NCBI GenBank assembly: GCA_944386175.1
Contig: CALXAB010000001.1
Coordinates: 47,645 to 111,644, forward strand
Direction: 5' to 3'
Length of the DNA: 64,000 bases
From: an uncultured Clostridia bacterium
GTDB lineage: Bacteria; Bacillota; Clostridia; TANB77; CAG-508
The position numbers were made by a program, and so were the translations under genes. Positions 20,453 through 47,282 of the stretch are shown here, one piece after another. Every line of letters starts with the position of its first letter. The first letter of the stretch is position 1. A model generated the notes under the pieces. It searched no databases, was not told the DNA's origin, and saw only the letters and a program-made list of their open reading frames with translations.

Positions 20453-20791
20453 GTGGATTTAAATCTATTGGAACCTATTATTAATAATCTTGATAAAGCA
20501 ATTCATAAGACTAACTTAAAAGACTCTTTTATAGACGAGTTTATTCATGATTTACAAAGAAGTATTTTAAGGCAAAACCTTGATTATGATTATAGTAAAT
20601 TACCTAAAAATACCATATTTGAAGTCGACTATATTGAAAATGGATTTGCTTCTTGTTTAGATACTGCACAAAAACATTCAGAAAAATATTATATTCCAGA
20701 AGAGTTACTTGATGAAACTGCCAAAAATGCAGATTATATTCAACTTGACGGTAACAAATATACTGCTGTTTCTAATCCATATAAAAATTAG
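20453..20791 (+). CDS. hypothetical protein (112 aa)
   Basis: AGGAGG at 20440-20445 and GTG start at 20453. The longer ORF from 20261 would read through the R repeat and is unlikely. Confidence 0.5.
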   Translation: MDLNLLEPIINNLDKAIHKTNLKDSFIDEFIHDLQRSILRQNLDYDYSKLPKNTIFEVDYIENGFASCLDTAQKHSEKYYIPEELLDETAKNADYIQLDGNKYTAVSNPYKN

Positions 20792-21758: not shown

Positions 21759-21767
21759 ACTCTCCTC

Positions 21768-22589
21768 CTATACATTTGCAACTTGTAATGTTTCAAAATA
21801 ATCTAGTACACTTTTAACTACCTCTTCTATTGGTAGTTCTAGCCAATTGTTTTTAGCAGTATTTAAACTCTTCAAATAATTTTTGTTATGTAATATTCTA
21901 TTTAATCTTTTAAATATATCCTCTAAGTTATTTTCTTTCATAGTTTCATCACTAAATATAAAAGTATTAAAACATTTTATCAATTTATTCTTATTTAAAT
22001 TTTCATTATTTATTAAATAATAGAAATCAAATATATCTTTGTATCTTGTAGAGATAAAACCAAATTTTAATAATGATTTCAATTTTTCTGAAAAAATTTG
22101 CTCTTTAGAATTTATTAGTAAAGTAACACTTTCTTTGATATTATTTAGATCAAAACAATATTCTTCTTGTTCAATATCAAAATTTTTATGCACTCCTATA
22201 TCTAATTTTGTTTCAATTTTATTATGTCTTTTATCTTTTAATTCAATATATACTCTTTTTCCATTATAATCTTGATGACTTAATTCTTCAATTGGAGCTA
22301 TAATTTTTATTGTTATATCTGATTCTTCATGATTCAACTTATCTATAAAATTTTCTATGGACTCATTTGATAAAGAATACTTTATAAAATCTAAGTCTAA
22401 ATCTCTTGTAGCTCGACGACTATCTTTAGAAATATTATGCATAACTACTCCACCTTTTATAGTTATATTTCTATTTAAAGAACTTTTGGATATTTTGGCT
22501 AGTATAATATCTTGACATACTTTGGCAGATGCATCTAAATGTTCATATCCATCTTTAATATAGTTATCTCTCATTTCTTTTAAATTCAT
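21768..22589 (-). CDS. AbiEii/AbiGii-family nucleotidyltransferase toxin (second locus)
   Basis: ITIKGGVVMHNISKDSRRATRDLDLDF nucleotidyltransferase core. Start overlaps the stop of the upstream antitoxin-like gene. Confidence 0.7.
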   Translation of the reverse strand: MNLKEMRDNYIKDGYEHLDASAKVCQDIILAKISKSSLNRNITIKGGVVMHNISKDSRRATRDLDLDFIKYSLSNESIENFIDKLNHEESDITIKIIAPIEELSHQDYNGKRVYIELKDKRHNKIETKLDIGVHKNFDIEQEEYCFDLNNIKESVTLLINSKEQIFSEKLKSLLKFGFISTRYKDIFDFYYLINNENLNKNKLIKCFNTFIFSDETMKENNLEDIFKRLNRILHNKNYLKSLNTAKNNWLELPIEEVVKSVLDYFETLQVANV

Positions 22590-23140
22590 TAAAACACCTC
22601 TCTTTGTAATGATTCATATATGTGTTCTTCATGTGGGAACATTTCTATATATTCTTCAATTTTACTTATATCTAAGCTATTTATAATTTTTCTGTAATTA
22701 GAAATTATTTCTTTGTAATAGTCAAATGCAAGTTGTTTTTTATTTCTGATTAGTTCTATTAACATTCTTTCCTTATCATATATATTTACTGTTACACCTT
22801 CTATATCAATTTGAGCTTTACCAATTTCAAATAATTTTTCTGAAACAAAGACTTGTACAATTTTATCGTCCTTAATTCTTAATGCATTTCTTTTTGTTGC
22901 TAAGTTTAATTTAGTTGGGATAACATCTGTTAAATTATGAAAATAAAATGCACTATCCATTGTAAAAATTGCATTTTTATACTTTTTTGATAATATTTCT
23001 AAATAATTTACATTTTTTGTATCTGAATATATATTTTTTTCAATTTTATATATTTCTTCTCTTTGAATTGCTTTCCTTATTTGATAGTCTGATTTGTATT
23101 TTTCCTTTATTTCTTTATGATTATATATCATTTTTACCAC
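22589..23140 (-). CDS. AbiEi-like antitoxin (second locus)
   Basis: 183 aa, overlaps the toxin start by 1 nt. Its size and position match an AbiEi_4-type partner. Confidence 0.55.
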   Translation of the reverse strand: MVKMIYNHKEIKEKYKSDYQIRKAIQREEIYKIEKNIYSDTKNVNYLEILSKKYKNAIFTMDSAFYFHNLTDVIPTKLNLATKRNALRIKDDKIVQVFVSEKLFEIGKAQIDIEGVTVNIYDKERMLIELIRNKKQLAFDYYKEIISNYRKIINSLDISKIEEYIEMFPHEEHIYESLQREVF

Positions 23141-27291: not shown

Positions 27292-27975
27292 TTACTTTCC
27301 AAAAATTCTACTTGCTTCTACTTGATTATATAATGCTTCTTCATTATCATAATAGAAAGCCCATTCTTTATCTCCATATGAAAAGTGCCACCACTCACCA
27401 TCATATGGAGCAAATCCTTCTTTCATCATAATTTTTCTTAATAATTTCCTATTATTTTTTGCTTCCTCTGATATATTTTCAGTTTCATAATAGCATTGTA
27501 TAGTACTATAATCTAATATATCTGAACCAAAATCTAATATTTTATTTTCAACATCATCATATATAGCTGCATCAACTGCTCCACCTGTCGGATGTCCTGA
27601 AACAACTGGTACAGCAATTTTCTCATGTATGTATTCATACATCTCTATTTCATCTTCAAATTTATCCTTTACTTCTTCTAGGATTTCATTAAAATATTTC
27701 TCTTGTTTTTTCATATCTCTAAAACCATATACTACTATTATTTTATAATTTTCATTTACTTCTTTTAACTTTTTTGCAACATTTATAAGTTTTTTATAAA
27801 CAGTTTTTCTTACAGCTATTTGATGTCCATATTCCAACATATTTCTTCTTTCTTGATATTTTCCAATCACTAGGTCATCTTCTAATGGAAGTAGTACAAA
27901 TTCTTCTTTGTCTGTTTCTTCATTAAAGTTCTCAATAGTTATCAAATCTTCATATCTTACAAAATTATTTGCCAT
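27292..27975 (-). CDS. VanX/DdpX-like D-Ala-D-Ala dipeptidase (M15 family)
   Basis: Zinc/catalytic motifs SGHPTGGAVD and EWWHFSYGD. Confidence 0.75.
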   Translation of the reverse strand: MANNFVRYEDLITIENFNEETDKEEFVLLPLEDDLVIGKYQERRNMLEYGHQIAVRKTVYKKLINVAKKLKEVNENYKIIVVYGFRDMKKQEKYFNEILEEVKDKFEDEIEMYEYIHEKIAVPVVSGHPTGGAVDAAIYDDVENKILDFGSDILDYSTIQCYYETENISEEAKNNRKLLRKIMMKEGFAPYDGEWWHFSYGDKEWAFYYDNEEALYNQVEASRIFGK

Positions 27976-27997
27976 TTGTATATTTGTCCTTTCTTTC

Positions 27998-29317
27998 CTA
28001 TTTTTTATTTTTTTGTAGTATTTTTATAGTTTCATCTAGCGTTATAGTATTTTGTTCCCCTGAATTCATATCTTTTAATGTTATTACATTATTTTTTATT
28101 TCTTCATCTCCTATAATTATTACATAATTTGCATTAATATTATTAGCATACTTGAATTTTTTTCCTATCTTTTGTTGTTCAATATTAATTTGTACATTTA
28201 TACCCTTTTCTCTTAGTTTTGCAGCTACTTTTGCACACATTTCACAGTCATCTGTCATTGAAATTATTAATACTTCTGCAATTGTTTCTTCAGTTGCTGA
28301 AATTATTTTATTATCTATTAGTTGAAAAAATAGCCTTGATAATCCTATTGAAATCCCTACTCCTGGCATTTTTCTATCAGTATAAAATTCTGTTAAATTG
28401 TCATATCTTCCTCCTGAACATATACTTCCTAAGTTTTTATATTGATTTAAAAATGTTTCATAAACTGTTCCTGTATAATAATCTAACCCTCTAGCAATAC
28501 TCAAATCAATTTTATAATTCTCTTCTGGAACTCCAAATATTTCAATAAATTTAGAAACTTCTTTTATTTCTTTTATACCTTCATTAAATATTTCATTATT
28601 AATTTGCATATTTTCTAATTCTTTTATTTTTTCTTCATTGTTTCCTCCTATACCCAAAAATTTAATTATAACATTAGCTTTTTTTTCTGGCATAAGTACT
28701 AATAATTCTTTTTTTACTTCTTCTTTTCCTATTTTTTCTATTTTATCAATTATTCTTAATATTTCAGATGATATATCTTCAAGTTTTAAACTTGAAAAAA
28801 GTCCATTTAATATTTTTCGATTATTTATACATATTGTAAAATCATCAAATCCTAACTTTTTAAAGGTATTATATATAATAGATGGAATTTCTGCATCATT
28901 TATTATTGACAATTCACCATCTCCAATAATATCAACATCACATTGATAAAATTCTCTATATCTTCCTCTTTGAGGTTTCTCACCACGATATACTTTTCCT
29001 ATTTGGTATCTTTTAAATGGAAAACTTAATTTATCATAGTATTCAGTTACATATTTAGCTAATGGTACTGTTAAATCAAACCTCAAAGCTAAATCTGTAT
29101 CTCCTTTTTCAAATCTATAAATTTGTTTTTCCGTTTCTCCTCCAGCTTTGGCCAGTAAAACATTTGCATCTTCTATTATTGGTGTATCTAATGGTACAAA
29201 ACCATATTGTTCGTAAGATTCTTGTATTATCGCTCTCATTTTATTAAATAATATTTGTTCATTAGGTAATAATTCCATAAATCCTGGTAAAGTTTTTGGT
29301 TGTATTTTCCCTTTCAT
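27998..29317 (-). CDS. hisS: histidine--tRNA ligase, copy 1 (divergent type)
   Basis: Class II motifs FRYE-like (KQIYRFEKGD), RYREFYQCDVDIIG and GGRYDNL, plus a C-terminal anticodon-binding domain. 439 aa. Confidence 0.85.
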   Translation of the reverse strand: MKGKIQPKTLPGFMELLPNEQILFNKMRAIIQESYEQYGFVPLDTPIIEDANVLLAKAGGETEKQIYRFEKGDTDLALRFDLTVPLAKYVTEYYDKLSFPFKRYQIGKVYRGEKPQRGRYREFYQCDVDIIGDGELSIINDAEIPSIIYNTFKKLGFDDFTICINNRKILNGLFSSLKLEDISSEILRIIDKIEKIGKEEVKKELLVLMPEKKANVIIKFLGIGGNNEEKIKELENMQINNEIFNEGIKEIKEVSKFIEIFGVPEENYKIDLSIARGLDYYTGTVYETFLNQYKNLGSICSGGRYDNLTEFYTDRKMPGVGISIGLSRLFFQLIDNKIISATEETIAEVLIISMTDDCEMCAKVAAKLREKGINVQINIEQQKIGKKFKYANNINANYVIIIGDEEIKNNVITLKDMNSGEQNTITLDETIKILQKNKK

Positions 29318-29329
29318 TCTAACTCCTCC

Positions 29330-29980
29330 TTAATAATCTCCTTTAATATTTTTTTTCTTTTTATTTCCTTGTTTTTTATGTCTTTCAATTAATTTATCTT
29401 CTATTTCTTGTATTGAAACATTAGATTTAAACATTAATACTAGTGTATGATATATTAAATCAGAAATTTCTCCTATCAATTCTTTTTTATCTATGTTTTT
29501 CGCAGCTATTACTGTTTCAGTTGCTTCTTCACCAACTTTTTTGCATATTTTATCTATTCCTTCATCTAATAAATAATTAGTATATGAATTTTCCTTTGGA
29601 TTAATATTTCTATCAATTATCTGATTATAAATATCCTGTAAGATATTTGTATCATCATTATTTTCATAAGAAACTATTTCCTTAAAAAAGCATGAATAGT
29701 TACCAGTATGACATGCTCCTTTTCCTTCCTGCTTTACATAAATCAACAATGTGTCGTTGTCACAATCTAAATACATGCCTTTTATTTCTTGAATATTTCC
29801 TGATGTTTCTCCTTTATGCCATAATTCTTTTCTACTTCTTGAATAAAAACATGTTTGTTTGTTTTCTATCATATATTTATAACTATCTTCGTTTACATAT
29901 GCTAACATCAATACTTCTTTTGTTTTATAATCTTGTACTATTGCTGGAATTAACTCCATCTTTTTAAAATCTGGCTTCAA
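29330..29980 (-). CDS. hisIE: bifunctional phosphoribosyl-AMP cyclohydrolase / phosphoribosyl-ATP pyrophosphatase
   Basis: HisI part [18 protein letters not shown]...DCDNDTLL...ACHTG. HisE part [15 protein letters not shown]. Confidence 0.9.
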
Positions 29981-30082
29981 TATTCTTCAACTCCTAAAAT
30001 ATTTATATTACTTATATATTGTTATTTTTATTGTGGGGAAAATAATACAATTATTTTCCCCTTTGATTAAACACTTTAAATC

Positions 30083-31447
30083 TTAAAGCTCTTTATCAAG
30101 GTAGATTTTTAAATCTTCCTCTTTTCTCTCTTTCTGTAATCTTCTCATCTTGTCAACACTACTTACACCTTCAAGTAATTTAAATCCTAATTTCACGGCA
30201 ATATTATAGGACATAGATTTACCTATTTCGAGAGTTTTCATATATACTCTTTCATAACCATCCTCTTTCATTACTTCAATAGCATATTTCATTAACTCTG
30301 TCCCAATTCCTTTTCCACGAAACTCTTGTAAGACTGTTATATCAGCAAGATATGCTGTTTTTTCTGGATTATCATAATGGACAGGATGCCTATCTTTTAA
30401 TAACATTTTTCTAAAAGTTACTGTTCCTATACATTCATCTCCAATATAATATCCATAAACATGACCGTATTTTGTTAGTTCTTCATATTCTTCTTTGATT
30501 AAATCATCTGTCCAATCCTCACAATATGGGGGATTACAAAATACTTTATATGCTTTTATAAAGTCTTTTATTTTATCTGGTGTTATTGCTTTGATTCTCC
30601 GTGCCATCATAGTTTTTTCCTCCTCTAATTCAATTGAATATTTTTTTCCATCAGTTTCAACATTGCCTAAAATAGTAGCCTTTTCAAAATTCCCTTCTTT
30701 ATAGATTATGTCTGCTGTAATAATCAATCCAGAAGGCTGTAAAACATCAATTTTTACACTTTCATTTTTTAAATAAGCTTCTACAATACATGTAGCTGTT
30801 GTCCCAGACCCACATGCTGTTTCATAGAAAAGTGTATGAATTTCCTTAACCCATACAATTGGATTAATCTTTATTACACCTTTTTCTTTTTCGCAGAACA
30901 TAACTCCTACTGCTTCACTATATTCAAGATGATATTTATGAATATAGTGCATCCCCATTGCTTTTAAATCCTTCTTATTAATAAGATATTTTTTAGCAAT
31001 TTCATCTTGAATAACTACAGTTACCATACCATTCATTTTTACAATAAAAATTCCTGGCTCTTTTTCAGTGATTACATCATCACCATGATAAAGTGGAATT
31101 TCGCACCATGCCTTTCCTTCTTCATCAACTCCTGCATTAATCAAATCTTTAGAATTTACAAACATTTGTAAATTCCCTGATTTACCATTTAAATAAATGG
31201 TTGCTGCACTTCTTGTTGCATTACCACAAAACTCTCCCCCTGCCATTTGCAATTCAGGTTTATGATTTAATTCAATAAACCCAACCTGCTCAACATTAGA
31301 ATGTTTTGCCATAATCAAATCGTTGATTTTCTTTCTCTGTTTTTGTGTATATTCCAATCCATAAACGAATGCTGTATCATTACCAGCTGGTCTATAAATT
31401 GAATATTCCACATTAGTTACAGATGCTTTGCAATGTTTTTCGTTCAT
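30083..31447 (-). CDS. fusion protein: DapF-fold PLP-independent racemase/epimerase (N-terminal) + GNAT acetyltransferase (C-terminal)
   Basis: RPAGNDTAFV, GGEFCGNATRSAA and ETACGSGTTATC (two catalytic-Cys motifs of the DapF fold). The C-terminal part has VLQEFRGKGIGTELMKYA (GNAT motif A). Confidence 0.65.
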   Translation of the reverse strand: MNEKHCKASVTNVEYSIYRPAGNDTAFVYGLEYTQKQRKKINDLIMAKHSNVEQVGFIELNHKPELQMAGGEFCGNATRSAATIYLNGKSGNLQMFVNSKDLINAGVDEEGKAWCEIPLYHGDDVITEKEPGIFIVKMNGMVTVVIQDEIAKKYLINKKDLKAMGMHYIHKYHLEYSEAVGVMFCEKEKGVIKINPIVWVKEIHTLFYETACGSGTTATCIVEAYLKNESVKIDVLQPSGLIITADIIYKEGNFEKATILGNVETDGKKYSIELEEEKTMMARRIKAITPDKIKDFIKAYKVFCNPPYCEDWTDDLIKEEYEELTKYGHVYGYYIGDECIGTVTFRKMLLKDRHPVHYDNPEKTAYLADITVLQEFRGKGIGTELMKYAIEVMKEDGYERVYMKTLEIGKSMSYNIAVKLGFKLLEGVSSVDKMRRLQKERKEEDLKIYLDKEL

Positions 31448-31520
31448 AATGTTCTCCTTTCTTTGAATTGAAGGTAAGTATAAAATATTTATACTTAGTA
31501 ATGAATAAATTACATTAATT

Positions 31521-31549
31521 ATTATATATTCATTTTATGTAAAAGTCAA
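31521..31549 (-). promoter_or_regulatory. sigma-A-type promoter for the racemase-GNAT/hisIE/hisS unit
   Basis: TTGACT (31549-31544), 17-nt spacer, TATAAT (31526-31521). Its -35 overlaps the hairpin GTAAAAGTC...GACTTTTAC (31539-31577) just after the hisG stop. Confidence 0.5.
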
Positions 31550-31579
31550 GAAAATCCAGTATATTCAAGACTTTTACGG

Positions 31580-32215
31580 TTATTTATTATTTTGTTTTTC
31601 TATTAAATCAATTAAATTTAAAATTTCTTCCTTCTTATACTTAAATTTAGTCTTATTACAAATTAATCTTGTACTTACATCTGCTATTTTCTCTATAACT
31701 TCTAAGCCATTCGCTTTCAATGTTGCTCCTGTTTCTACTATATCTACTATTGCATCTGTTAATCCAACTACTGGTCCTAATTCAACTGACCCTTCAAGTT
31801 TTATTATTTCAACATCTTCATCTTTACTTTCAAAATAGTTTTTAGCAACACTAGGATATTTTGTTGCTATCCTTTTTCTTCTATTTAATTTTAGATTTTT
31901 ATATTCAGGATAACTACAGACTGCAAATGAGCATTTTCCTATTTCCAAATCTAGTAATTCATAATAATTTTTAAAAGAATTTTCCAGTAATGTATCACTA
32001 CCTACAATTCCTATATCAACAATACCATGTTCAATAAAGGTAACTACATCGTTTGACTTTGCAAATATTATTATCATTTTATCTTCTACGTTTATTTGTA
32101 ATTCTCTTTTTTTATTTATCATAGATTCTACATTATATCCTAATTTTTCTAACATTTCTGTCATCTTTTTTTCTATTCTACCCTTTGTTAAGGCTATCTT
32201 TAACATTTTGTTCAC
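31580..32215 (-). CDS. hisG: ATP phosphoribosyltransferase, short form
   Basis: 211 aa. [13 protein letters not shown] and [18 protein letters not shown]. The short HisG form requires HisZ. Confidence 0.9.
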
Positions 32216-33176
32216 CTGCTCTTTCTACTGCTTTTAATATATTATCCATATAATAAGCCATTCCTATGGCTGGTACATCCTTTCCGAAATTGTTATATAA
32301 TTTGTCATATCTTCCACCACTTATTATAGGTTCTTCTACAAATTTACTATATACTTTAAATATAATTCCTGTATAATATTCCATATTAGGAACACAAGCC
32401 AAATCAAACAAATCTTGTTGTTTCATATTCATGGTTTCATACAATTCTTTCAATTCTATTAGACTATTCTTTAATTCATTATCTCTTAATTTTTCTATGG
32501 TTCTTACTAATATTTCTATATTTCCATTAAGTCTTGGTAAAGATATTAAAAAATTGCTTATATTTTTATCTATATTATATTTATCACAAAATTTTTTTAA
32601 TCCACTTATATTTTTTTGTAGTAATAGCTGCGAAAACTCTTTCTTTTTTTCAGATCCAACTATTTGGCATAATCTATTATAAAAACTAGCTGAACCAAGT
32701 TCTATCTTTAAATCCTTTAATCCAAAAAGTGGTAAAGATTTTTGTAATAATGATATACACTCTACATCTCCTTCTATTGCTTTTTTTCCAATTAATTCTA
32801 TCCCTACTTGGTATATTTCGCTATTCTTTCCTTTATGTTCCTTTTCTTTTCTATATACTTTTCCAAAATAGCAATACCTTTTTATTTCATCTTTTTTTTG
32901 TGATACATAGTATCTAGCTATTGGAACTGTAAAATCCCATCTTAAAGCAACATCTTTTCCTTCTTTATTTATATATTTGAATAAAGTACTCTCATCTAAA
33001 TTCTTATATACACTTTTATATAATTCCACATATTCAAATGTTGGCATCAGCATTTCTATATATTTTTCATCATAGAATATCTTTCTCAATTTACTTTCAA
33101 AATTTCTTAATTTATTAACATTCTCAGTAATTACCCCACTACTTTCTTCTGGTATTGAAAATTTGTATAATTCCAT
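32178..33176 (-). CDS. hisZ: ATP phosphoribosyltransferase regulatory subunit (HisRS paralog without anticodon-binding domain)
   Basis: 332 aa with a HisRS-like catalytic core ([19 protein letters not shown]). Overlaps hisG. Confidence 0.85.
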
Positions 33177-33196
33177 AAAAATTCTCCTTTCACATT

Positions 33197-33251
33197 AAAA
33201 AGCTATATAGTTAAATAATATCTTTCTATGAATATTATCTACCTATATAGC
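33197..33251 (-). terminator. attenuator terminator in the hisZG leader
   Basis: On the minus strand: GCTATATAGG (33242-33251) ... CTATATAGC + TTTTT (33197-33210), 20 nt upstream of the hisZ RBS. Confidence 0.65.
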
Positions 33252-33314
33252 TTTATATTTTTATATAGGCACATCAAAATCGACTTGTGCCTATACATTA
33301 TATTAGACACAAGT

Positions 33315-33362
33315 TTAAAAATGATGATGCACTTTATTTATATTTTTAGTTATATTCTTCAT
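33315..33362 (-). CDS. 15-aa leader peptide MKNITKNINKVHHHF with three consecutive His codons
   Basis: AAGAGGAA RBS, ATG at 33362-33360, CAT CAT CAT at 33329-33321, TAA at 33317-33315. Followed by overlapping alternative stems. Confidence 0.6.
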   Translation of the reverse strand: MKNITKNINKVHHHF

Positions 33363-33392
33363 TTTTATTCCTCTTTTTTCTTATTTTTAATT

Positions 33393-33421
33393 ATAATACA
33401 TTATTTTTTTATATATGTCAA
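33393..33421 (-). promoter_or_regulatory. sigma-A-type promoter of the hisZG leader
   Basis: TTGACA (33421-33416), 17-nt spacer, TATTAT (33398-33393). Confidence 0.6.
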
Positions 33422-33482
33422 GTACAAAATTCATTTTTTTTAACATGCTATAACCAATTATGATTATAGCATGCTTTAGATT

Positions 33483-33767
33483 TTACTTAGAGAAAGATAT
33501 AATTGCATAATGTCGCTTTGCATCAATTTGATAATAAGAATGCCCCCTAATATTAATTGGCTTTTCTATTGTTTTAATAGAAATTTTCAGCCCATTACCA
33601 TTTGCCCAGCTTGTTAGTTCTCTTTCCATAGCAACATCTACATCCCTTTTTTCTTTTTCAATCTGAACTTTCTTGAAAAATACTAATGCTACTTTTACTT
33701 TGAACTTAATCCATTCCGTATCAAACCGTGACCTTTCTCTTCTTTTTCTACTTTCAAATTTTGACAT
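33483..33767 (-). CDS. hypothetical basic protein (94 aa)
   Basis: ORF only. Followed by the hairpin AGCATGCTATAA..TTATAGCATGTT. Confidence 0.35.
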   Translation of the reverse strand: MSKFESRKRRERSRFDTEWIKFKVKVALVFFKKVQIEKEKRDVDVAMERELTSWANGNGLKISIKTIEKPINIRGHSYYQIDAKRHYAIISFSK

Positions 33768-33873
33768 ATAGATTTACCTCCTACTATTTATTTTATTTAT
33801 TTTATCACATACACTTATATTTTTCAATTAAAATTTTAGGAAGCCATGCATTATACACAGCTCCCTATGATTT

Positions 33874-35205
33874 TCAGTCCTTATTATTAGTTTCGATAAA
33901 TTGCATAATCCCTTCATAGTCAAAGATACCGAACTCTCGATTGTTTCCAGTTTCCATATCCTTGACTTGGATTTTTTGCTGTTTGATTTCATCTTCCCCA
34001 ATAATAATAACGTAAGGAATGTTCATTTTGTTGGCATAATTCATACTTTTTTTCAGTTTCTGAGTCTTTTTTTCCATTTCTGTTTTGATTCCAACTTCAC
34101 GCATTTTAGTAACAAACTTAAATGTCTGTTCTTCTGTTCCCATTGGAATCACAAACAAATCAACGGTAGAAAACTTTTTGTCAGAATTCTTTAAGACTAA
34201 AATTTCATATATAACATCTAATCCAAAAGACATTCCAACTGCTGGATATTCATTTCCATCATCAATGAATGTTGTAATAATTTTATCGTATCTGCCTCCT
34301 CCTCCTATGCTCATGTTGAAATCTTGTACACCAACTTTTCTGTCTTTCAGGAAAATCTCCCAAACTGTACCAGTATATATATCAATCCCTCTTGCCAAAT
34401 AAGGAGCAAATTTCATGCATTTTTCGGCCTCTGTTCCTGACAGATAATCATATAATGCATCAATTTCTTTTATCCCTTCGGCAATCATTTCATTATCATA
34501 TACTGATAATAATCTTTTTAATGTTACATAATCAGAGTTTAGAACATTTTTCAATGCCTCCACTTTATTGGCATCAATACCAATAGCTGCAAACTCTTCA
34601 AATAATTCTTCCTCTGTGAGTTTGGCAAACTTATCAATCAACATGATTGATTTTCTTAATATTTCTTCCGAAACATCACCAAAAATAGAGAAGATGATAC
34701 CACTCAATAGCTTTCTGTTGTTGAATTCTATTTCAATGTCAAGTCCTAGCTCTTTATATGCTTCGCTTGTCATTGTCATGTATTCTGCTTCTGCTAAAAC
34801 ACTTTTAACTCCAACAACATCAACATCGCATTGGGTAAATTCTCTGTTTCTACCTACCTTAACTGGACCATCTCTAAAAACTTTTCCAATCTCATACCGT
34901 TTAAAGGGTAAGGTAACTCCTTTATTTGAACTAATCAATTTAGAAAAAGTGATTGTCAAATCATACCTTAAACCCAGTTTTCTTTTTCCTTGATCACTCA
35001 ATTTGTACATCTCGTTCAGAATATCTGCACCTTCTGAATATTTAGATGCCAATAAGTCATACATACAAAGAATTGGTGTTTCGACTGGTGAAAATCCGTA
35101 CTTTACAAAGATGCTTTGCAATACACTTTTGATTTTTTCCCGGATAATTTGTTTTTCCGGCAAATAATCATAAGTCCCCTTTAAGTTTTCAAAATTTCTG
35201 CTCAT
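33874..35205 (-). CDS. hisS: histidine--tRNA ligase, copy 2 (canonical bacterial type)
   Basis: KGTYDYLPEKQ, LRYDLTITFSK, NREFTQCDVDVVG and GGGGRYDK, plus an anticodon-binding domain. 443 aa. Confidence 0.85.
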   Translation of the reverse strand: MSRNFENLKGTYDYLPEKQIIREKIKSVLQSIFVKYGFSPVETPILCMYDLLASKYSEGADILNEMYKLSDQGKRKLGLRYDLTITFSKLISSNKGVTLPFKRYEIGKVFRDGPVKVGRNREFTQCDVDVVGVKSVLAEAEYMTMTSEAYKELGLDIEIEFNNRKLLSGIIFSIFGDVSEEILRKSIMLIDKFAKLTEEELFEEFAAIGIDANKVEALKNVLNSDYVTLKRLLSVYDNEMIAEGIKEIDALYDYLSGTEAEKCMKFAPYLARGIDIYTGTVWEIFLKDRKVGVQDFNMSIGGGGRYDKIITTFIDDGNEYPAVGMSFGLDVIYEILVLKNSDKKFSTVDLFVIPMGTEEQTFKFVTKMREVGIKTEMEKKTQKLKKSMNYANKMNIPYVIIIGEDEIKQQKIQVKDMETGNNREFGIFDYEGIMQFIETNNKD

Positions 35206-35450: not shown

Positions 35451-36125
35451 TTAAAATTCCCTTATATCATATCTAAAATATAGTCCATCCATTTTTATTT
35501 TATGAAAATCTTTTATTATATTTTCTTTGACTTTATTAAAATCTTTTCCTACTCTTCTTAATGCAAATACTCTACCTCCTGAAGGATATAGTATATTATT
35601 TTTTGATATTATATGTTCCCCTATAATATCTGTTGTATTTTTTACTTTGTTCATACCTAAAATTGGTTCATCAAAACTACTTCTTTCTACTTCTGGATAT
35701 CCTGCTGAAAATCCATACATTGCTATAGAAAAGCAGTCTTTTTTCCAACAATTATTTATCTTTTCTACATCTTCATAAAAGAAATTTATTATATCTATAA
35801 AAGGTTTATTCAGTAACCCTAATAAAGCTAACCACTCTGGATTACCTGTTCTTGTATTATATTCTAATACATATACTTTTTTATCTTCGGTAACCATTAT
35901 TCCTATATATAAAATATAGTTATATTCCATATTTTCTTTTTTCATACCTCTTATAGTTGGTTCTATTATATCTTTTTTTAATTGTTCTTCTTTTTCTGTG
36001 CTAACTCTTGCATAAGCACATACTCTTAAATTACCTTTTATAACTTCTCCTGTTGTTCTATTAATTCTTCCTTTTTTCTTCTCTATTACTTGTACTTTCA
36101 AATTTAACCTCTCTTTCTCAAGCAT
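35451..36125 (-). pseudogene. chimeric ORF: first 48 codons of an LSR gene fused in frame to the C-terminal ~176 aa of a PurD-like (phosphoribosylamine-glycine ligase) gene
   Basis: Residues 1-48 (MLEKERLNLKVQVIEKKKGRINRTTGEVIKGNLRVCAYARVSTEKEEQ) are almost identical to LSR 48681-50573. From 35981 leftwards the sequence matches the PurD C-terminal half (EYNTRTGNPEW, SGGRVFAL, DGLYFRYDI). Confidence 0.8.
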
Positions 36126-40821: not shown

Positions 40822-41004
40822 TTATGTGTTTCCACTTACCACATCTGCAACTACTTTAACTTTCACATCTGAATTTTGATGTTTTTCTCTTCCATATCTT
40901 CCTTTTTTCTCGAAAGTTATAATCTCTGAAAACATATCAAATTCAAGTATTACCTGTCCTGTTTTAGTTGTAGCACTGCCACACATTCCACATGTGTTGG
41001 TCAT
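40822..41004 (-). CDS. CxxC tail module of LSR B, in a separate overlapping frame
   Basis: MTNTCGMCGSATTKTGQVILEFDMFSEIITFEKKGRYGREKHQNSDVKVKVVADVVSGNT is homologous to the in-frame C-terminus of LSR C. Overlaps the end of LSR B by 41 nt. Confidence 0.5.
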   Translation of the reverse strand: MTNTCGMCGSATTKTGQVILEFDMFSEIITFEKKGRYGREKHQNSDVKVKVVADVVSGNT

Positions 41005-42679
41005 CTCTGGTTGCAGTAAGTTTTAAATGTTGTTTATCTCCTGTTGCAGTAAAATTGTCTTTACAATTTATTTCTGTTCCGTTTTTACAAATAAACCTTA
41101 TTGTATATGGATTTATTGTACCATTTTCTAATGTTTCCCCAATTATTACTTTCTCTATTATACATTCAAAAATATCTTTATCAAAATTTTTCATTATTTC
41201 CATATCTTTAAATAAACCTTTAAACTTGTTTAATCTATGTTTAATACTTTCATTTCTGTTTGTGTCTTTTAGTAGGTTTTGTATTTTCTGTTCTACTTTT
41301 AATAGTTCTATGTTTAGCTCATCATATTTTAAAGTATATTGTTCTTTATTTATTCTGCCTTCTAAGTTTAGTTCTAATAGATTATTAAGTTTCTTGTTTA
41401 TTTTCTCTTTGTCTTTTTCTAGCTTATTTACTACTGTTTCTGTAGTATTTTCTTTTAAGACATTTTCTATTTTTTCTAAAAAATCTTCTACTACTTTTTT
41501 ATTGTTGTTACAGAGTATTCTATATCCTTGTACAAAACAATCTTCTAGTATTTCTTCTGGTATTGCTTTACAGTATGGGCATTCTTCTTTTCCATGTTTT
41601 GCTCTTTTGATACATTGCCATACTGCTTTTTCATATTTTCTTTTTGAGTTCCAGTTTCTTCTTGTAAGTAAGCTACCACAAAATCCACAATATAATTTAC
41701 TACTAAAAGCATATTTCTTACTATAGTTATTATTTCTTCTTCCTGTTTCTCTTGTTCCTACTCGTTTTATTCTTATTTCTTGTACTCTATCAAATAACTC
41801 TTTACTAATAATTGGCTCATGATGTTCTTTTATATAATGCTTTTCTGCTTCTCCTAAATTGCTTAATCTTTTATGTGATATTGGATCTATTGTAAATGTT
41901 TTTCCCATTAGCACATCTCCAATATATTTTTCATTTTTTAGTATTCCTCTTATTGTTGATTCGTTCCAATTATCATTACCTTTTGGGGATTTAATGCCTT
42001 TTGCTTTTAGTTCTTTTGCTATTGTACTTGAACCTATTCCGTCTACATATCTTTCAAATATATATTTTATAACTTCTGCTTGTTCCTCATTTATAGTTAT
42101 CTGTTTTGTTATTAAATCATAGTTATAACCGTAACAACCATTATAGCCAATTAACTCTCCCCTGTCTTTCTTCATTTTTAGTCCAAGCAATACATGTGAA
42201 GATATGTTCTCACTTTCTTGTTGTGCCATAGCACTTAATACTGTTAGTAGCATTTCTCCTGTTCCTGATAGAGTATTTAGATTTTCTTCTTCAAATAAAA
42301 CTGCAATGTTCTTTTCTTTTAGCATTCTTACATATTTTAAAGTATCTAATGTGTTTCTAGCAAATCTTGATATGGATTTTGTTAAAATCATATCAAATTT
42401 TCCAGACATTCCATCTGTTATCATTTTCATAAAGTCTGTTCTTTTAAAATCTAATGTGCCACTTATAGATTCATCTGCATATATTCCTGCAAATTGCCAT
42501 TCAGATTTGCTATTGATTTTTTCATCATAATACTTTAATTGTGATTGGTAACTATTTAATTGTTCTTTATTTCCTGTACTAACTCTACAATATGCACATA
42601 CTCTTAATCTTTCTTTGATTGTTGTACCTGTTACTCTGTTAATTCTTCCGTTTGTTTTCTCTATGACTTGAATTTCCAT
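40964..42679 (-). CDS. large serine recombinase, unit B
   Basis: Resolvase catalytic domain (VCAYCRVSTGNKEQ, SISRFARNTLD), recombinase domain, zinc ribbon (CGFCGSLLTRRNW...CPYCK) and coiled coil. Confidence 0.9.
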   Translation of the reverse strand: MEIQVIEKTNGRINRVTGTTIKERLRVCAYCRVSTGNKEQLNSYQSQLKYYDEKINSKSEWQFAGIYADESISGTLDFKRTDFMKMITDGMSGKFDMILTKSISRFARNTLDTLKYVRMLKEKNIAVLFEEENLNTLSGTGEMLLTVLSAMAQQESENISSHVLLGLKMKKDRGELIGYNGCYGYNYDLITKQITINEEQAEVIKYIFERYVDGIGSSTIAKELKAKGIKSPKGNDNWNESTIRGILKNEKYIGDVLMGKTFTIDPISHKRLSNLGEAEKHYIKEHHEPIISKELFDRVQEIRIKRVGTRETGRRNNNYSKKYAFSSKLYCGFCGSLLTRRNWNSKRKYEKAVWQCIKRAKHGKEECPYCKAIPEEILEDCFVQGYRILCNNNKKVVEDFLEKIENVLKENTTETVVNKLEKDKEKINKKLNNLLELNLEGRINKEQYTLKYDELNIELLKVEQKIQNLLKDTNRNESIKHRLNKFKGLFKDMEIMKNFDKDIFECIIEKVIIGETLENGTINPYTIRFICKNGTEINCKDNFTATGDKQHLKLTATRDDQHMWNVWQCYN

Positions 42680-42881
42680 CTTTCCTCCGTTCCGCCTAGA
42701 GATAAAACTTAATAATTTTATTTTATAGAAAAGTGCATTTTAATGCATCTTTTCTATAAAACAAGGTTAATTTACCTATATTTGCCCGAGCTTTAGCTCG
42801 TGGCATTTGAGCCTAGAAATCTTTGATTTCGTTAAGGCTCAATTATCTTATATCATTTTTTAGATAAAAAGTAAATTGTTC

Positions 42882-43058
42882 TTACAAAAGTTTATAATCT
42901 TTTAAGATTTTTCTTTTTATTTCAATATATTCTGAATCTAGTATTAAGTTTTCTCTAAACAAATTATTTAAAAACAATAATTCCATGCTACAGTCTAGCA
43001 TATTATTATCTTTTAGTTGTTTAGAGTTATCTACTTCTATTTTATAATTATGTAGCAT
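42882..43058 (-). CDS. 58-aa conserved small ORF preceding the LSR (copy B)
   Basis: AAGGAG RBS. MLHNYKIEVDNSKQLKDNNMLDCSMELLFLNNLFRENLILDSEYIEIKRKILKDYKLL aligns with copies A and C. Confidence 0.55.
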   Translation of the reverse strand: MLHNYKIEVDNSKQLKDNNMLDCSMELLFLNNLFRENLILDSEYIEIKRKILKDYKLL

Positions 43059-43149
43059 GAAATTGCTCCTTTTCTTTAAATTTGAAAAGAAAAAGAACAA
43101 AGAAACTAGAATCTTTCTAATCCCTTTGCTCTTTCTCTTTCATACTACC

Positions 43150-43178
43150 ATTATATTATCGTGTTTTTATATAGTCAA
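43150..43178 (-). promoter_or_regulatory. consensus sigma-A promoter of unit B
   Basis: TTGACT (43178-43173), 17-nt spacer, TATAAT (43155-43150). Confidence 0.6.
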
Positions 43179-43199
43179 TTCCATTTTTATTCCCTCTTT

Positions 43200-43640
43200 T
43201 CTATTTTTGATATAATTCTAGTATCTAATTTTATAAGTACACTAAGTAAACTAAAAATTGTATAATTTTAAATTGCAGTTCACTTGGTGTACTAGAAAAA
43301 TATAACAAAAGTTCACTAAGTGTATTTGTAAATTTTGTTTTATTTTCACATTCACTTAGTGAACTAAATTCAAAAATATTATTCAATATCAAGTACACTT
43401 GGTGAACTTTTTCCCAAAATAAGTGAATTTTTTTAATTTTTTAATTCACCATTTTTAATTTTGAACGAAGAATAGCGGGTTTGAGCCAGTTCACCGAGTG
43501 AATTTTTACATCATATTTGCATAAAATTTTTGTTTTTTTATTAACTCTTGAAGGCTTGTCCTTCAATATGTATAGGCATTTTGTTAAGAATGCTATCCTG
43601 CCCTCATTTTCAATGAGGTATTTTGCTCTTAAAATGTACT
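43200..43640 (-). repeat. R module, copy B (diverged)
   Basis: Dyads at 43236-43252, 43277-43293, 43310-43326, 43350-43365, 43392-43408 and 43488-43504. Outward-facing half sites at 43422-43450. Core and hairpin at 43541-43603. Confidence 0.8.
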
Positions 43641-43685
43641 TATTCTACTTAATTAAATATACTTATCCTTAAATCCTCTTAATCG

Positions 43686-43769
43686 AAAAACAATGTGCTT
43701 TTAAAAATAAGTCAAGGTTGTGCGATAGCACATTTATTTAAACCTTGACTTGTTTTTATAAAGCACATT
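43686..43769 (-). terminator. long conserved hairpin H (copy c) after the ParB-like gene
   Basis: ~28-bp stem AATGTGCTTTATAAAAACAAGTCAAGGTT / AACCTTGACTTATTTTTAAAAGCACATT followed by GTTTTTCG (minus strand). Confidence 0.6.
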
Positions 43770-43788
43770 ATACTTTTCTAAAAGGATT

Positions 43789-45225
43789 TTAACTATTTAT
43801 AAAAAATTGAATTATTGCAAATATTCCCATATCTGAAATTGTTTTTATTGCATCTACATTAGCAATAACTTTATAAGGGTGATGAATTACTAAATCTAAA
43901 TAGTTTTTCATTCCTTCATTATTAAAACATGTCTCCCATGCTCTTGAAATAGTATCGTCATCAATAAGATTTTGTTTATCTATTGATATTTTATTTATAA
44001 TCTTCTCTAATCTCAAGTCCAAATTATTATTTGCAGATTTCCATTTTTCCCATTTTCCTTTGTTTATTAAAAAATAGATGCTTGATTGTTCTAATAATGA
44101 GCGGATTAAAAAGCAATATGATATTGGGTAATTTTTATATAAATTTCCAAATGATAAATGCTGAATTTCATAGCATAGATTTTTAATCCCTTTAGCTCTA
44201 TCATTACTATATTTTAGTTTGCTACAATTAATATTTTTAAATAAAATACTATTGTCTTTTCTTGTTAATCTGATTTTATTAAATGCTATACTTTCATTTA
44301 TTTTATTTTTTACTATTTCACTTTCATTGGCATTATTATGTTTTTCTTCTCTACCATTAGAAAATATCTTCATTTGTTCATTTTTATTTTCTAAATTTTC
44401 ATTTATTTTATCTTTGCTGTCAAACCTTTCACTAACATTATTTTCTATATTGCCATACAAATATTTTTCTATATTAGCATTATTTTTTATTGTGTTACTT
44501 GTAATCCTACCACTTACAATATCTTGAACAATTCGTAATACTTTCTTGTCTAATTCATTTATTGAAGACAATGGCATTAAAACATTGTTATTAAAAGAAA
44601 TATTCAGATATTCTTTACCAACTTTTGAAGAAACAATCTTTTCAAACTTATTTACTGAAAAATTATTGTCAACTCCATCAAATGCTTTTTTACAAAATCC
44701 TTGTAATTGTGAAAATATATTTTTTACTCCCATTTTATCTTCAAATCTTTTTATTGAAGCTGTATCCCATTTTAAAGCTCCTGTATCAGTTGTATGTACA
44801 TTTCTTATATATCCAGCACAATCTTCAAATGAAGTGGCCACATAACAAGGAATTTGAAAATATTCTTCTCCTTGAATTCCTGCACTCATTGCATATATGC
44901 TTCTTATTTGTGTATATGAAAAGTATTTAAAAGATTCTACCAATTTAGGATTTTTTAAGATTTTCATTGCTGTTAATCTTCTATTACCATCCCATGCCAC
45001 AAATTTTTCTTTTTTCTCATCATAAGTGACTGTAACTATTGATTGTGGATACCAACCATTTGTGTAAATATCACTAATTAACTTATGCATTGCCTTCGCT
45101 TCTTTAGAATTTCTCACCAATTGTTGCATTATAAAAAGTTCATCCGCTATCATAATTTGTGTATGTCTTGGATTCTCTGGATTTACTAATATTTTTTCTA
45201 TGTCTATTAGTTGATGTTCTCTCAT
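43789..45225 (-). CDS. ParB/Srx-fold N-terminal domain protein with a large uncharacterised C-terminal region
   Basis: ILVNPENPRH and VAWDGNRRLTAMKIL (ParB-like nuclease/NTPase motifs). GGGGGA RBS before MREHQL. Confidence 0.55.
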   Translation of the reverse strand: MREHQLIDIEKILVNPENPRHTQIMIADELFIMQQLVRNSKEAKAMHKLISDIYTNGWYPQSIVTVTYDEKKEKFVAWDGNRRLTAMKILKNPKLVESFKYFSYTQIRSIYAMSAGIQGEEYFQIPCYVATSFEDCAGYIRNVHTTDTGALKWDTASIKRFEDKMGVKNIFSQLQGFCKKAFDGVDNNFSVNKFEKIVSSKVGKEYLNISFNNNVLMPLSSINELDKKVLRIVQDIVSGRITSNTIKNNANIEKYLYGNIENNVSERFDSKDKINENLENKNEQMKIFSNGREEKHNNANESEIVKNKINESIAFNKIRLTRKDNSILFKNINCSKLKYSNDRAKGIKNLCYEIQHLSFGNLYKNYPISYCFLIRSLLEQSSIYFLINKGKWEKWKSANNNLDLRLEKIINKISIDKQNLIDDDTISRAWETCFNNEGMKNYLDLVIHHPYKVIANVDAIKTISDMGIFAIIQFFINS

Positions 45226-45294
45226 ATATAATTCCCCCATTTTTTACCTTATAAAGTCTTTCGTAAATCCCTCATCATTCTTAAGTATATTATT

Positions 45295-46791: not shown

Positions 46792-46842
46792 CTTCTCACC
46801 TTTCTTTTTCAAATGTCCGTTTTTTCGGACTTATAAAATTTT

Positions 46843-47259: not shown

Positions 47260-47282
47260 TGATAAGACCTCCTCTTACATTT

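Follow-up and report, generated by a model that had tools for sequence, protein, structure and literature searches.

Is the leader upstream of hisZ in the 64-kb stretch of DNA analysed here (the window) a switch that senses histidine through translation of its own short open reading frame (ORF), and what would it control? The genome in which it lies has a GC content of 25%. The original prediction took the leader for a ribosome-mediated His attenuator, and the leader ORF, the covariation of its stems and its mask folds support this reading as far as sequence analysis goes. We consider that the leader is probably a ribosome-mediated transcription attenuator that senses tRNA-His charging through a relay of mutually exclusive stems formed by five segments, A to E (probability about 0.8).

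Elements of the hisZ leader

A promoter, a ribosome-binding site (RBS), a leader ORF and the segments A to E had been predicted from the sequence, and all of them were confirmed on the minus strand. Segment 1 is added here.

33393..33421, minus strand: predicted sigma-70-type promoter (TTGACA at 33421-33416, spacer of 17 nt, TATTAT at 33398-33393)
33370..33374, minus strand: RBS of the leader ORF, AGAGG (core GAGG at 33373-33370), 7 nt 5' of the ATG, read from the sequence
33315..33362, minus strand: leader ORF, MKNITKNINKVHHHF plus stop codon, ATG to TAA, 15 codons, with CAT CAT CAT at 33329-33321
33322..33337, minus strand: segment 1 (AUAAAGUGCAUCAUCA), Lys-Val-His-His-His codons, able to pair with the 5' part of C (moderate support)
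33304..33314, minus strand: segment A (ACUUGUGUCUA), immediately 3' of the stop codon, partner B
33283..33297, minus strand: segment B (UGUAUAGGCACAAGU; originally predicted part 33295-33283, confirmed), alternative partners A or C
33262..33276, minus strand: segment C (UGAUGUGCCUAUAUA; originally predicted part 33273-33262, confirmed), partners segment 1, B or D
33251-33242, minus strand: segment D; the 3' arm of the antiterminator C:D is UAUAUAGGUA at 33240..33249, within the terminator 5' arm
33210-33202, minus strand: segment E, followed by TTTTT at 33201-33197
33197..33253, minus strand: intrinsic terminator D:E, a 22-bp interrupted hairpin (33253-33200) with a G-C closed stem (33251-33202) and a U-run (33201-33197)

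The promoter falls in the gap that separates the leader ORF from the upstream ORF, matches 11 of 12 consensus positions and was the top promoter-like site in a 1-kb scan. As in the attenuator class, a translatable short ORF with an RBS carries a run of cognate codons, here three consecutive CAU in 15 codons. Over both strands of 64 kb, chance alone would give about 0.7 ORFs of at most 30 aa with at least three consecutive His codons, and the leader ORF is the only short HHH ORF in the window that is both intergenic and provided with an ATG and an RBS. The scan for short HHH ORFs found no second His leader in the 64-kb window, for example 5' of the upstream hisS.

The four pairings originally proposed for the segments all exist, with computed energies of -13.0 kcal/mol for A:B (11 bp), -15.2 kcal/mol for B:C (12 bp, the strongest among the short stems), -9.1 kcal/mol for C:D (10 bp) and -21.7 kcal/mol for the full 22-bp hairpin D:E, which was found in every minimum free energy (MFE) structure. 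C:D overlaps D:E, and both B:C and the pairing of segment 1 with C (1:C) overlap C:D; the leader thus has the antiterminator sharing terminator 5'-arm bases and the competing upstream stem that are typical of the class. Folding, which had been suggested as a check, showed that the 203-nt leader is far more structured than its shuffles (MFE -47.9 versus -24.7 ± 3.5; z = -6.7; 0 of 200 shuffles as good). The intrinsic terminator is placed between the leader ORF and the first gene, as in other attenuators, and 20 nt separate its U-run from the hisZ ATG. D:E, although its hairpin and U-run are clear, was not listed by the consensus terminator scan, probably owing to an AU-rich stem with a mismatch in it.

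Conservation of the leader ORF and covariation of the stems

His-run leader ORFs 5' of hisZ in relatives had been named as another check, and among the 68 related hisZ loci, 65 had such an ORF, 14-20 codons long and with 3-5 His codons. In the ORF scan, 64 of the 71 fetched hisZ loci had an ORF of 14-20 codons with HHH to HHHHH, ending 107-166 nt before hisZ (233 nt in one locus); in L033 the His-leader ORF lies further upstream and was found by a covariance model. The His run was kept while its neighbours varied (KVHHHF, QFHHHHWNT, LHHHHRGSS and others), and GAGG/AGGT-type sites are present 5' of the leader ATG in the relatives.

Covariation was counted in two groups of leaders, group 1 (16 leaders including that of the window) and group 2 (46 distinct Erysipelotrichales leaders). 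By eye, TTGACA or TTGACT is visible at the equivalent relative position in most of the group-1 relatives. The MAFFT alignment of group 1 was replaced: it placed segment C off by two columns in L010-type sequences, which made the counts for B:C and C:D too low and the +2 slide too high, and the group-1 counts for these two helices come from anchor-registered windows. In group 1, A:B was 91.5% paired over the 16 leaders, with one pair swapping between GC (9) and AU (7). The 9-bp core of B:C was paired in 14-16 of the 16 leaders and showed AU/GC, UA/CG and CG/UA swaps. For C:D, counted in 15 leaders, pairing was 92.7% and one pair swapped between UA (7) and CG (6), and the lower stem of D:E was 93.4% paired, both partners having changed in 6 of its 11 pairs. 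Slid registers, the control for the anchor-registered windows, gave 13-52% pairing. One B base covaries with partners in both A and C, and the covariation is three-way for A-B-C and for B-C-D, with swaps that match partners in two different helices.

In group 2, the helices 1:C, A:B and D:E together were 90.5% paired compared to 33-45% when slid, with 97 double-changed cells versus 36 in shuffles (0 of 500), and C:D was 97.2% paired with 3 compensatory pairs (0 of 500). B:C was 77% paired in this group, essentially without covariation, and its overlap with C:D is a few bases. RNAalifold alone recovered just A:B in the two groups and, in group 2, the terminator; it is too conservative for alternative or long-range helices, which limits the evidence. 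On these counts, compensatory changes maintain the four helices A:B, B:C, C:D and D:E.

A predicted switch set by the position of the ribosome

In the mechanism that we infer, from transcript start and leader translation to kinetics and histidine response, transcription would start from the TTGACA-17-TATTAT promoter and a ribosome would translate the 15-codon leader while the polymerase makes A to E. When histidine is scarce, the ribosome would wait with a CAU codon in the A site, covering the His-codon segment and leaving A free. A:B would then form, which would leave C free to pair with D once D emerges, and C:D would sequester the terminator 5' arm and allow read-through into hisZ. When histidine is plentiful, the ribosome would reach UAA and cover A, so that B would be released and B:C would form; D would be free, and D:E with the U-run would terminate transcription some 20 nt short of the hisZ start codon. 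Without a ribosome on the His codons, 1:C, which encloses A:B, would probably keep C unavailable.

Ribosome positions were modelled by mask folding, an equilibrium model in which the leader is cut before E and the ribosome-covered mRNA is masked. With the His1, His2 or His3 codon in the A site, the MFE of the window leader was A:B plus C:D, and it changed to B:C with D unpaired when the stop codon was placed there. These folds are thermodynamically consistent with a switch and reproduce, within the model, the predicted logic in which a stall leads to A:B plus C:D and arrival at the stop codon leads to B:C. Two features speak against the reading: there are only three His codons, and the third is no more than two codons before A, so that a stall there would already cover 3-4 nt of A. 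The same order of D capture (His1 > no ribosome > stop) was also obtained with three leaders of the closest relatives (L001, L002 and L006). When the window leader is untranslated and cut before E, C:D forms too at equilibrium, which makes a default OFF state less evident.

Over 62 distinct leaders, the mask test did not separate 'stalled' from 'at stop' in the Erysipelotrichales subfamily and is informative for the window's subclade only. Its measure, any upstream partner of the terminator 5' arm, is noisy in AU-rich RNA, and for this reason the mask result was not used as support in group 2. Given this non-separation and a B:C helix without covariation, it may be kinetics, such as ribosome release or pausing, and not B:C that discriminates in group 2.

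Probable pairing of the His codons with segment C

A fifth pairing, absent from the original prediction, joins the His-codon segment to the 5' part of C and encloses A:B in most leaders; we hold it with moderate confidence. The 1:C duplex of the window has an energy of -9.9 kcal/mol (z = -2.7, p = 0.015). In the Erysipelotrichales leaders, UCAUUGG pairs with CUAAUGA, and the conservation of the Trp codon after the His run in these leaders is probably due to constraint of the codons by pairing with C.

This pairing suggests a classical three-segment logic, which we regard as possible but not probable, in which 1:C is the anti-antiterminator, A:B is mainly a pause or spacer hairpin and B:C is secondary. 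A stalled ribosome would mask segment 1 and leave C free for C:D, while with ample histidine the ribosome would leave quickly and 1:C would re-form before D is made. The three-segment logic accounts for the conserved Trp codon, and the pairing on which it depends is widespread: 1:C is within the MFE of the window leader and of almost all other leaders if the fold begins at the AUG, 12 of 14 group-1 leaders have it at a significant level, and in group 2 it is 85% paired with 38 double-changed cells versus 12.7 in shuffles (0 of 500), more compensatory cells than any control. However, 1:C is missing from L020 and L029 though both have A-E, RNAalifold did not call it in either group, and in the window leader cut before E a partial 1:C coexists with C:D, so that the antiterminator is not excluded there. 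The two groups also differ in what they say of B:C, which lacks covariation in group 2, in favour of the three-segment logic, but in group 1 is the strongest short stem with swaps matched to both A and C. A U-run 3' of B in group 2 (CCCAUUUUG) fits a pause site, and the published Peptostreptococcaceae-type leaders fold alike.

Other modes of control

It is very unlikely that the switch acts on hisZ translation by masking its RBS, or on mRNA stability, and not on termination. Some attenuators do have an RBS-sequestering structure in place of a terminator, and 'translational attenuators' stand in the title of Additional file 6 of the same study (PMC9413887), but in the window and in nearly all relatives a U-run lies directly 3' of D:E, and the hisZ RBS (AGGAG, about 33187-33183) is 10 nt past the U-run and unpaired in all predicted folds.

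Regulation of the terminator without leader translation, by a protein, a small molecule or uncharged tRNA as in a T-box, with the ORF being incidental, has still less to recommend it. Many his and hisS genes of Firmicutes are under T-boxes or the HisR repressor (PMC9413887), whereas the leader described here is only about 190 nt long, is without a specifier loop or T-box sequence architecture, and belongs to a set in which the His run with its ATG and RBS is kept in nearly all loci while the neighbouring codons change. Neither a T-box nor another Rfam family, His_leader (RF00514) included, was matched in 32800-33900 (E up to 10) or in the 64-kb window (gathering score). The permissive Rfam matches were microRNA/snoRNA models on AU-rich hairpins and were rejected as compositional; mir-1277 on the terminator was one of them (26.9 bits versus a gathering score of 81). 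The upstream 94-aa ORF was considered as a HisR/TrpR-like repressor and rejected, as it gave no such match.

Finally, a chance ORF beside the ordinary terminator of the upstream gene is refuted by the comparative data, for although AU-rich hairpins and short ORFs are common at 25% GC and the window holds two further short HHH ORFs, those two lie antisense inside genes and start with TTG, a promoter sits between the upstream ORF and the leader, and conservation and covariation span 60+ loci with HisZ identity down to about 40%. Judged from these comparisons, the leader structure and its ORF are not due to chance.

Relation to known histidine leaders

The original prediction held such an attenuator to be unexpected in a low-GC Firmicute, and published work contradicts this. 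From comparative genomics, candidate His-leader attenuators have been proposed 5' of hisZ in six Erysipelotrichales species and in Peptostreptococcaceae (PMC9413887, Additional file 6), one was predicted 5' of hisZ in the B. cereus group (PMC2965389), and a His attenuator was noted in C. difficile (PMC4833913); no RF00514 match was found in Firmicutes (PMC9413887). The window leader is a real, conserved, predicted histidine-sensing switch of a kind already predicted in related Firmicutes.

The Erysipelotrichales candidates are from Catenibacterium, Coprobacillus, Eggerthia, Erysipelatoclostridium, and [Clostridium] cocleatum and spiroforme (Ashniev et al. 2022, PMC9413887, Additional file 6C), and these Erysipelotrichales are the nearest named relatives of the window HisZ (42-48% identical). 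Their leaders lie 5' of hisZ and have a short leader ORF with 3-5 consecutive His codons, a stop codon just before the first hairpin, and an 'attenuator' hairpin, an antiterminator and a terminator with a U-run, and the window leader has the same position, His run and set of hairpins. The published species (L031, L045, L050 and L059) also have the five-segment layout and the His-codon:C pairing of the window. In contrast, the stems differ (ACUUGUG/GGCACAAGU/UGUGCCUAUAUA in the window versus GGGUUAUAUC/GAUACAGCCC/GGGUGUAUCUAAUGAC there), the peptide ends in KVHHHF and not in HHHHW..., and the window operon is without hisD, hisC, hisB, hisH, hisA and hisF.

A covariance model built from the 46 Erysipelotrichales leaders (R1) gave no match on the window with E up to 10. 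It placed five close relatives (L001, L003, L013, L020 and L029) at the correct position with only 11.9-18.1 bits (E 0.56-9.5), compared to 120 bits for the true member L033. The missing match and these weak scores point to a separate sequence subfamily, and membership of the Erysipelotrichales sequence family is not claimed for the window leader. By these comparisons it is a diverged subfamily with the same architecture, in the Clostridium sp. CAG:440 clade.

The candidates of Peptostreptococcaceae and Lutispora (C. difficile, Terrisporobacter and others; PMC9413887, Additional file 6B) share the architecture 5' of hisZ and belong to a different phylogenetic group. Their B/C segments cAUAGAUACAAGccc / gggCUUGUAGCUAUG resemble UAUAGGCACAAGU / UGUGCCUAUA of the window by eye, in a printed supplement that possibly has transcription errors, and when the published sequences were folded the His codons paired with CUAUGAUG. 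The His leader of the Bacillus cereus group, found 5' of hisZ and of the hisS paralogue hisS* (Naville and Gautheret 2010, PMC2965389), is alike by description, with a His-run peptide replacing a T-box in a low-GC Firmicute; it controls a HisRS paralogue, and the window operon likewise holds a second hisS. The B. cereus element is regarded as an independent acquisition (PMC9413887). Histidine-specific T-box leaders occur in Lactobacillales and some Erysipelotrichaceae (PMC9413887). They share with the window leader the input (tRNA-His charging), the output (terminator versus antiterminator) and the targets (his operon, hisS), but sense uncharged tRNA by direct RNA-RNA contact, without translation.

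Enterobacterial hisL works on the same principle: whether the antiterminator or the terminator forms depends on translation of a His-rich leader, in a chain of more than three alternative stems. The His codons number seven in E. coli hisL and three in the window leader, and the window leader precedes hisZ, a gene not known from enterobacteria. Unlike in hisL, the His codons of the window leader are 5' of the first local hairpin and have a predicted long-range pairing with C, and there was no sequence or structure match between the two (RF00514, E up to 10).

The presumed operon behind the leader

The leader was predicted to precede hisZ-hisG, and both genes are found there, followed by four others.

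32178..33176, minus strand: hisZ, HisZ-like regulatory subunit of ATP phosphoribosyltransferase (TIGR00443, E = 5e-74, 249 bits)
32215-31580, minus strand: hisG, second gene of the presumed operon
31447-30083, minus strand: fusion of a His-racemase-like and a GNAT domain, presumed operon
29980-29330, minus strand: hisIE, presumed operon
29317-27998, minus strand: second hisS, presumed operon
27975-27292, minus strand: M15 peptidase, last gene of the presumed operon (the genes after hisZ span 27292..32215)

The score of the window HisZ on TIGR00443 is slightly below the curated cut-off (271.65), and its named relatives are annotated as ATP phosphoribosyltransferase regulatory subunit. The shared strand and the short gaps suggest that the genes from hisZ to the M15 peptidase are co-transcribed. 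The same gene set is found in L001 and L006 and is rearranged in L020. The operon has none of hisD, hisB, hisC, hisH, hisA and hisF and is not a normal his biosynthetic operon, which makes it the less ordinary point of the locus. The operons form a series, from canonical through hisZGHAFIE and hisZG-rac-GNAT-HAF-IE-hisS to hisZG-racGNAT-IE-hisS.

A speculative reading, to which we give little weight, is that in the CAG:440-like clade the His leader controls a repurposed 'histidine-starvation' operon and no longer histidine biosynthesis. The first three pathway activities (HisZG, HisIE) would have been kept, and the racemase-like/GNAT fusion, a second HisRS and an M15 D-amino-acid-type dipeptidase added. 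Possible roles are the salvage of D-histidine or of His-containing peptides or, alternatively, the use of PR-ATP, PR-AMP or ProFAR for a non-histidine purpose. If this is true, the series would record an attenuator retained while its cargo was exchanged.

With this leader, the Firmicutes that would sense histidine by leader translation, and not by a T-box or HisR, gain a gut lineage that is uncultured and very AT-rich, together with about 60 further loci. The comparative set offers an unusually clean case of three-way covariation for mutually exclusive stems, in which RNA pairing appears to constrain the codons beside the His run, and it gives a testable structural model for a class hitherto only sketched in a supplement. 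It also has value for annotation, as such short ORFs and leaders are absent from Rfam. For physiology, more may be learned from the reduced operon that follows the leader.

Promoter, leader ORF and pairing segments upstream of hisZ

Reading the minus strand of 32900-33600, we found the promoter, RBS, leader ORF, consecutive RNA segments A to E and U-run of the original prediction all in place:

33421-33416 and 33398-33393, minus strand: promoter TTGACA / 17 nt / TATTAT (11/12 positions match; best promoter-like site of the region)
33374-33370, minus strand: AGAGG, RBS of the leader ORF
33362-33315, minus strand: leader ORF with ATG start, encoding MKNITKNINKVHHHF
33314-33304, minus strand: segment A
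33295-33283, minus strand: segment B
33273-33262, minus strand: segment C
33251-33242, minus strand: segment D
33210-33202, minus strand: segment E, followed by UUUUU at 33201-33197
33176, minus strand: hisZ ATG, preceded by an RBS

For the 203-nt leader the computed MFE is -47.9 kcal/mol, compared to -24.7 ± 3.5 kcal/mol for dinucleotide shuffles (z = -6.7). All four proposed pairings could be computed, and explicit evaluation gave -13.0 (A:B), -15.2 (B:C), -9.1 (C:D, the antiterminator) and -21.7 kcal/mol (D:E, the terminator). About 0.7 short ORFs with ≥3 consecutive His codons are expected per 64 kb, and the other five HHH-containing ORFs in the window are all on the plus strand, antisense to long ORFs. 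Rfam gave nothing real at the leader region, and at gathering score the whole window held no family and no T-box. Between a 94-aa ORF of no family and the -35 box lies a perfect 10-bp inverted repeat, CATGCTATAA(N10)TTATAGCATG (33432-33470). A8 follows it on the minus strand (T8 on the plus strand), and the repeat could serve to bind a protein or to terminate plus-strand transcription.

His-run leader ORFs in relatives

The window has a GC content of 25%, and the closest named relatives of its HisZ-like protein are Erysipelotrichales. Searching reference genomes with a HisZ alignment yielded 71 loci (L001-L071). The closest (68-91% identity) belong to Clostridium sp. CAG:440 and to gut MAGs of uncultured 'Clostridia' (chicken, rabbit and human), and those at 39-52% to Erysipelotrichaceae and Coprobacillaceae (Thomasclavelia, Massilimicrobiota, Faecalibacillus, Catenibacterium, Longibaculum, Eggerthia and others). 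His-run leader ORFs precede hisZ in relatives: 64 loci have an ORF of 14-20 codons that starts with ATG behind an RBS, contains 3-5 consecutive His codons and ends 107-166 nt before hisZ (233 nt in L045). The leader peptide is variable outside the His run, so that conservation is confined to the run itself and the RNA. L033 carries a full leader of the Erysipelotrichales type (120 bits, L033:141-285) about 550 nt 5' of hisZ, compared to the usual 110-170 nt, which suggests an insertion between attenuator and operon. In L005, a close relative, the promoter adjoins segment B directly (L005:7880-8000); the leader ORF and A are missing, and B, C, D and the terminator are kept. This is either a natural deletion, which should lock the leader as B:C plus terminator, or an assembly artefact. 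The leader was absent in the 255 nt and 215 nt 5' of hisZ in L028 and L056, respectively; the other loci without a counted leader are L062 (truncated) and L070 and L071 (distant homologues).

Covariation of the alternative stems

The leaders fall into two sequence subfamilies. Group 1 is the window's subfamily of 16 leaders: the window itself, the CAG:440 clade, L010, L013, L014, L020, L029, L037 and L042. A:B was 91.5% paired with a GC(9)/AU(7) swap, and RNAalifold also finds it; D:E was 93.4% paired, and both sides changed in 6/11 pairs. Since MAFFT placed C two columns off, B:C and C:D were counted on anchor-registered windows. The B:C core was almost always paired, with swaps AU/GC, UA/CG and CG/UA, and for C:D pairing reached 92.7%, with a swap of UA/CG; in slid controls these two counts gave 13-52%. 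The covariation extended to three segments at once: the change of GGCAC to GGUAC in B has G-to-A counterparts in both A and C, and the change of UAUA to UGCA in C has counterparts in both B and D. Such matched changes in A-B-C and B-C-D are three-way covariation, the signature expected of mutually exclusive helices.

Group 2 consists of 46 distinct Erysipelotrichales leaders. Here the nested set of A:B, D:E and 1:C, in which segment 1 (the His-codon segment of the leader ORF) pairs with the 5' part of C, was 90.5% paired and dropped to 33-45% on sliding; it had 97 double-changed cells versus 36 in shuffles (0/500). C:D was 97.2% paired with three compensatory pairs, and B:C was 77% paired with essentially no covariation. 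CCCAUUUUG is conserved just 3' of the A:B hairpin (columns 60-70 of A3, the alignment of this leader type; e.g. L015:7905-7915). The group 2 A:B hairpin with its U-tract resembles a pause site or a weak first terminator; in contrast, leaders of the window's subfamily do not conserve the U-tract after A:B.

An additional pairing involving the His codons

When leaders were folded from the AUG, segment 1 paired with C around A:B in the MFE of nearly all of them. In the window, AG-U-GCA-U-CAUCA pairs with UGAUG-UGC-CU (duplex -9.9 kcal/mol, z = -2.7, p = 0.015), and 1:C was significant in 12/14 group 1 leaders and absent from L020 and L029. In group 2, UCAUUGGAACACU, which covers the last His codons and the Trp-Asn-Thr codons, pairs with GGGUGUAUCUAAUGA; this helix alone was 85% paired, with 38 double-changed cells versus 12.7 ± 2.7 (0/500) and a covariation score higher than all slides. 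The part that the Trp codon takes in this pairing explains why Trp is kept next to the His run and later residues are variable. Published Terrisporobacter and Lutispora leaders show the same type of fold. 1:C is a moderately supported pairing beside A:B, B:C, C:D and D:E, rated so because the RNAalifold consensus does not call it.

Ribosome position and the alternative folds

We folded the window transcript ending before E with a ribosome mask that began 15 nt behind the first base of the A-site codon and extended 12 nt ahead of it. With the A site at His1, His2 or His3, the masked MFE was A:B + C:D; at the stop codon it was B:C with D unpaired. Folds of L001, L002 and L006 gave the same ordering. 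A ribosome stalled at the His codons would permit A:B + C:D, and the antiterminator would form; one at the stop codon would permit B:C with D unpaired, leaving the terminator free to form. Full-length energies were -44.5 (1:C + A:B + D:E), -36.9 (B:C + D:E) and -22.1 kcal/mol (A:B + C:D), which implies that read-through must be decided kinetically, as in classical attenuators. C:D also forms in the untranslated window leader ending before E, and the group 2 mask folds do not separate stalled and stop states. Because of these two weaknesses, we retain as a live rival a variant that makes 1:C the main anti-antiterminator and A:B a pause hairpin. The predicted His-attenuation logic keeps its switch by ribosome position in the window's mask folds and is amended by 1:C; in this amended form, a ribosome-mediated His attenuator is well supported by the modelled folds and the comparison of leaders.

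Relation to known His leaders

Such His leaders were reportedly first predicted by Vitreschak et al. (2004). A 2022 search of Firmicutes his upstream regions (PMC9413887) gave no RF00514 hits and described 'novel candidate RNA attenuators' whose leaders carry three to five His codons. They were reported for three sets of genomes: six species of the B. cereus group, Lutispora with four Peptostreptococcaceae, and six Erysipelotrichales (Catenibacterium, Coprobacillus, Eggerthia, Erysipelatoclostridium, [C.] cocleatum and [C.] spiroforme). A histidine leader peptide was noted in bacilli before hisZ and before a hisS paralogue (PMC2965389, 2010), and His-tRNA-dependent leaders 5' of hisZ are mentioned for C. 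difficile and the B. cereus group (PMC4833913). Since these proposals make the attenuator known as a prediction in Firmicutes, the view that it is unexpected in a low-GC Firmicute does not hold. Experimental tests of these Firmicutes leaders were not found in the literature; the sole related datum found was that the transcription start of hisZ has been mapped in C. difficile. A covariance model of the Erysipelotrichales type gave no hit to the window leader; its relatives scored 12-18 bits at the correct position, compared to 120 bits for a true member. This places the window leader in a new sequence subfamily and not among the listed members. By sequence, the window leader is a diverged subfamily of a known, predicted kind of His attenuator.

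Surroundings and operon behind the leader

27292-33176, minus strand: reduced his cluster of hisZ, hisG, His-racemase-like + GNAT fusion, hisIE, second hisS and M15 peptidase
30083-31447, minus strand: fusion of 454 aa, DapF-fold domain + GNAT acetyltransferase
27998-29317, minus strand: downstream HisRS paralogue, within the leader-controlled operon
33874-35205, minus strand: upstream HisRS paralogue
35451-36125, minus strand: 224-aa ORF, by similarity the C-terminal half of PurD (ATP-grasp domain end + C domain)
40379-36892: two ABC exporter genes adjoining the cluster
42679-40964 and 50573-48681: two large serine recombinases
22589-21768: AbiEii toxin
46812-45295: Schlafen/AlbA_2-HATPase protein

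The last four lines are island-like genes, the first of them next to the his cluster and the other three within 20772-23140 and 40964-50573. Long ORFs across 1-64000 are nearly all on the minus strand, with negative GC skew throughout, and no tRNA gene was found in the 64-kb window. Both HisRS paralogues flanking the cluster pass the TIGR00442 cut-off, share about 34% identity and have no T-box; a terminator-like hairpin (33867-33837) ends the upstream copy. The purD fragment has matches of 53-76% identity in L001, L002, L005 and L009, which suggests a conserved gene fragment or repurposed domain.

The fusion's DapF-fold domain is a distant relative of the histidine racemases CntK and Fusobacterium HisR. 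Among PDB entries, the nearest to it are DAP epimerases and the Fusobacterium histidine racemase 9cr6 (E 1e-14 to 1e-17). This N-terminal domain is PF26317 (precomputed Pfam), common as a stand-alone protein of ~270 aa. In P0240, a Peptidase_M15 domain is fused to a relative of the racemase-like domain, which suggests that the racemase-like protein and the downstream M15 dipeptidase act together.

No hisD, hisB, hisC, hisH, hisA or hisF lies within the cluster. The same reduced set occurs in L001 and L006 and is rearranged in L020; L004 and L005 keep hisH-hisA-hisF after separate racemase and GNAT genes, and L013 has hisZGHAFIE, then pyr genes. The clusters of these loci and the window form a stepwise series. 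In the Erysipelotrichaceae loci hisIE lies ~4 kb past hisG, a distance that would fit the full hisZGDCBHAF(IE) operon described for these genera (PMC9413887). The operon differs among relatives while the leader stays, so the leader was retained and the operon remodelled. This remodelled operon behind a retained leader goes beyond the original finding and is its most interesting loose end.
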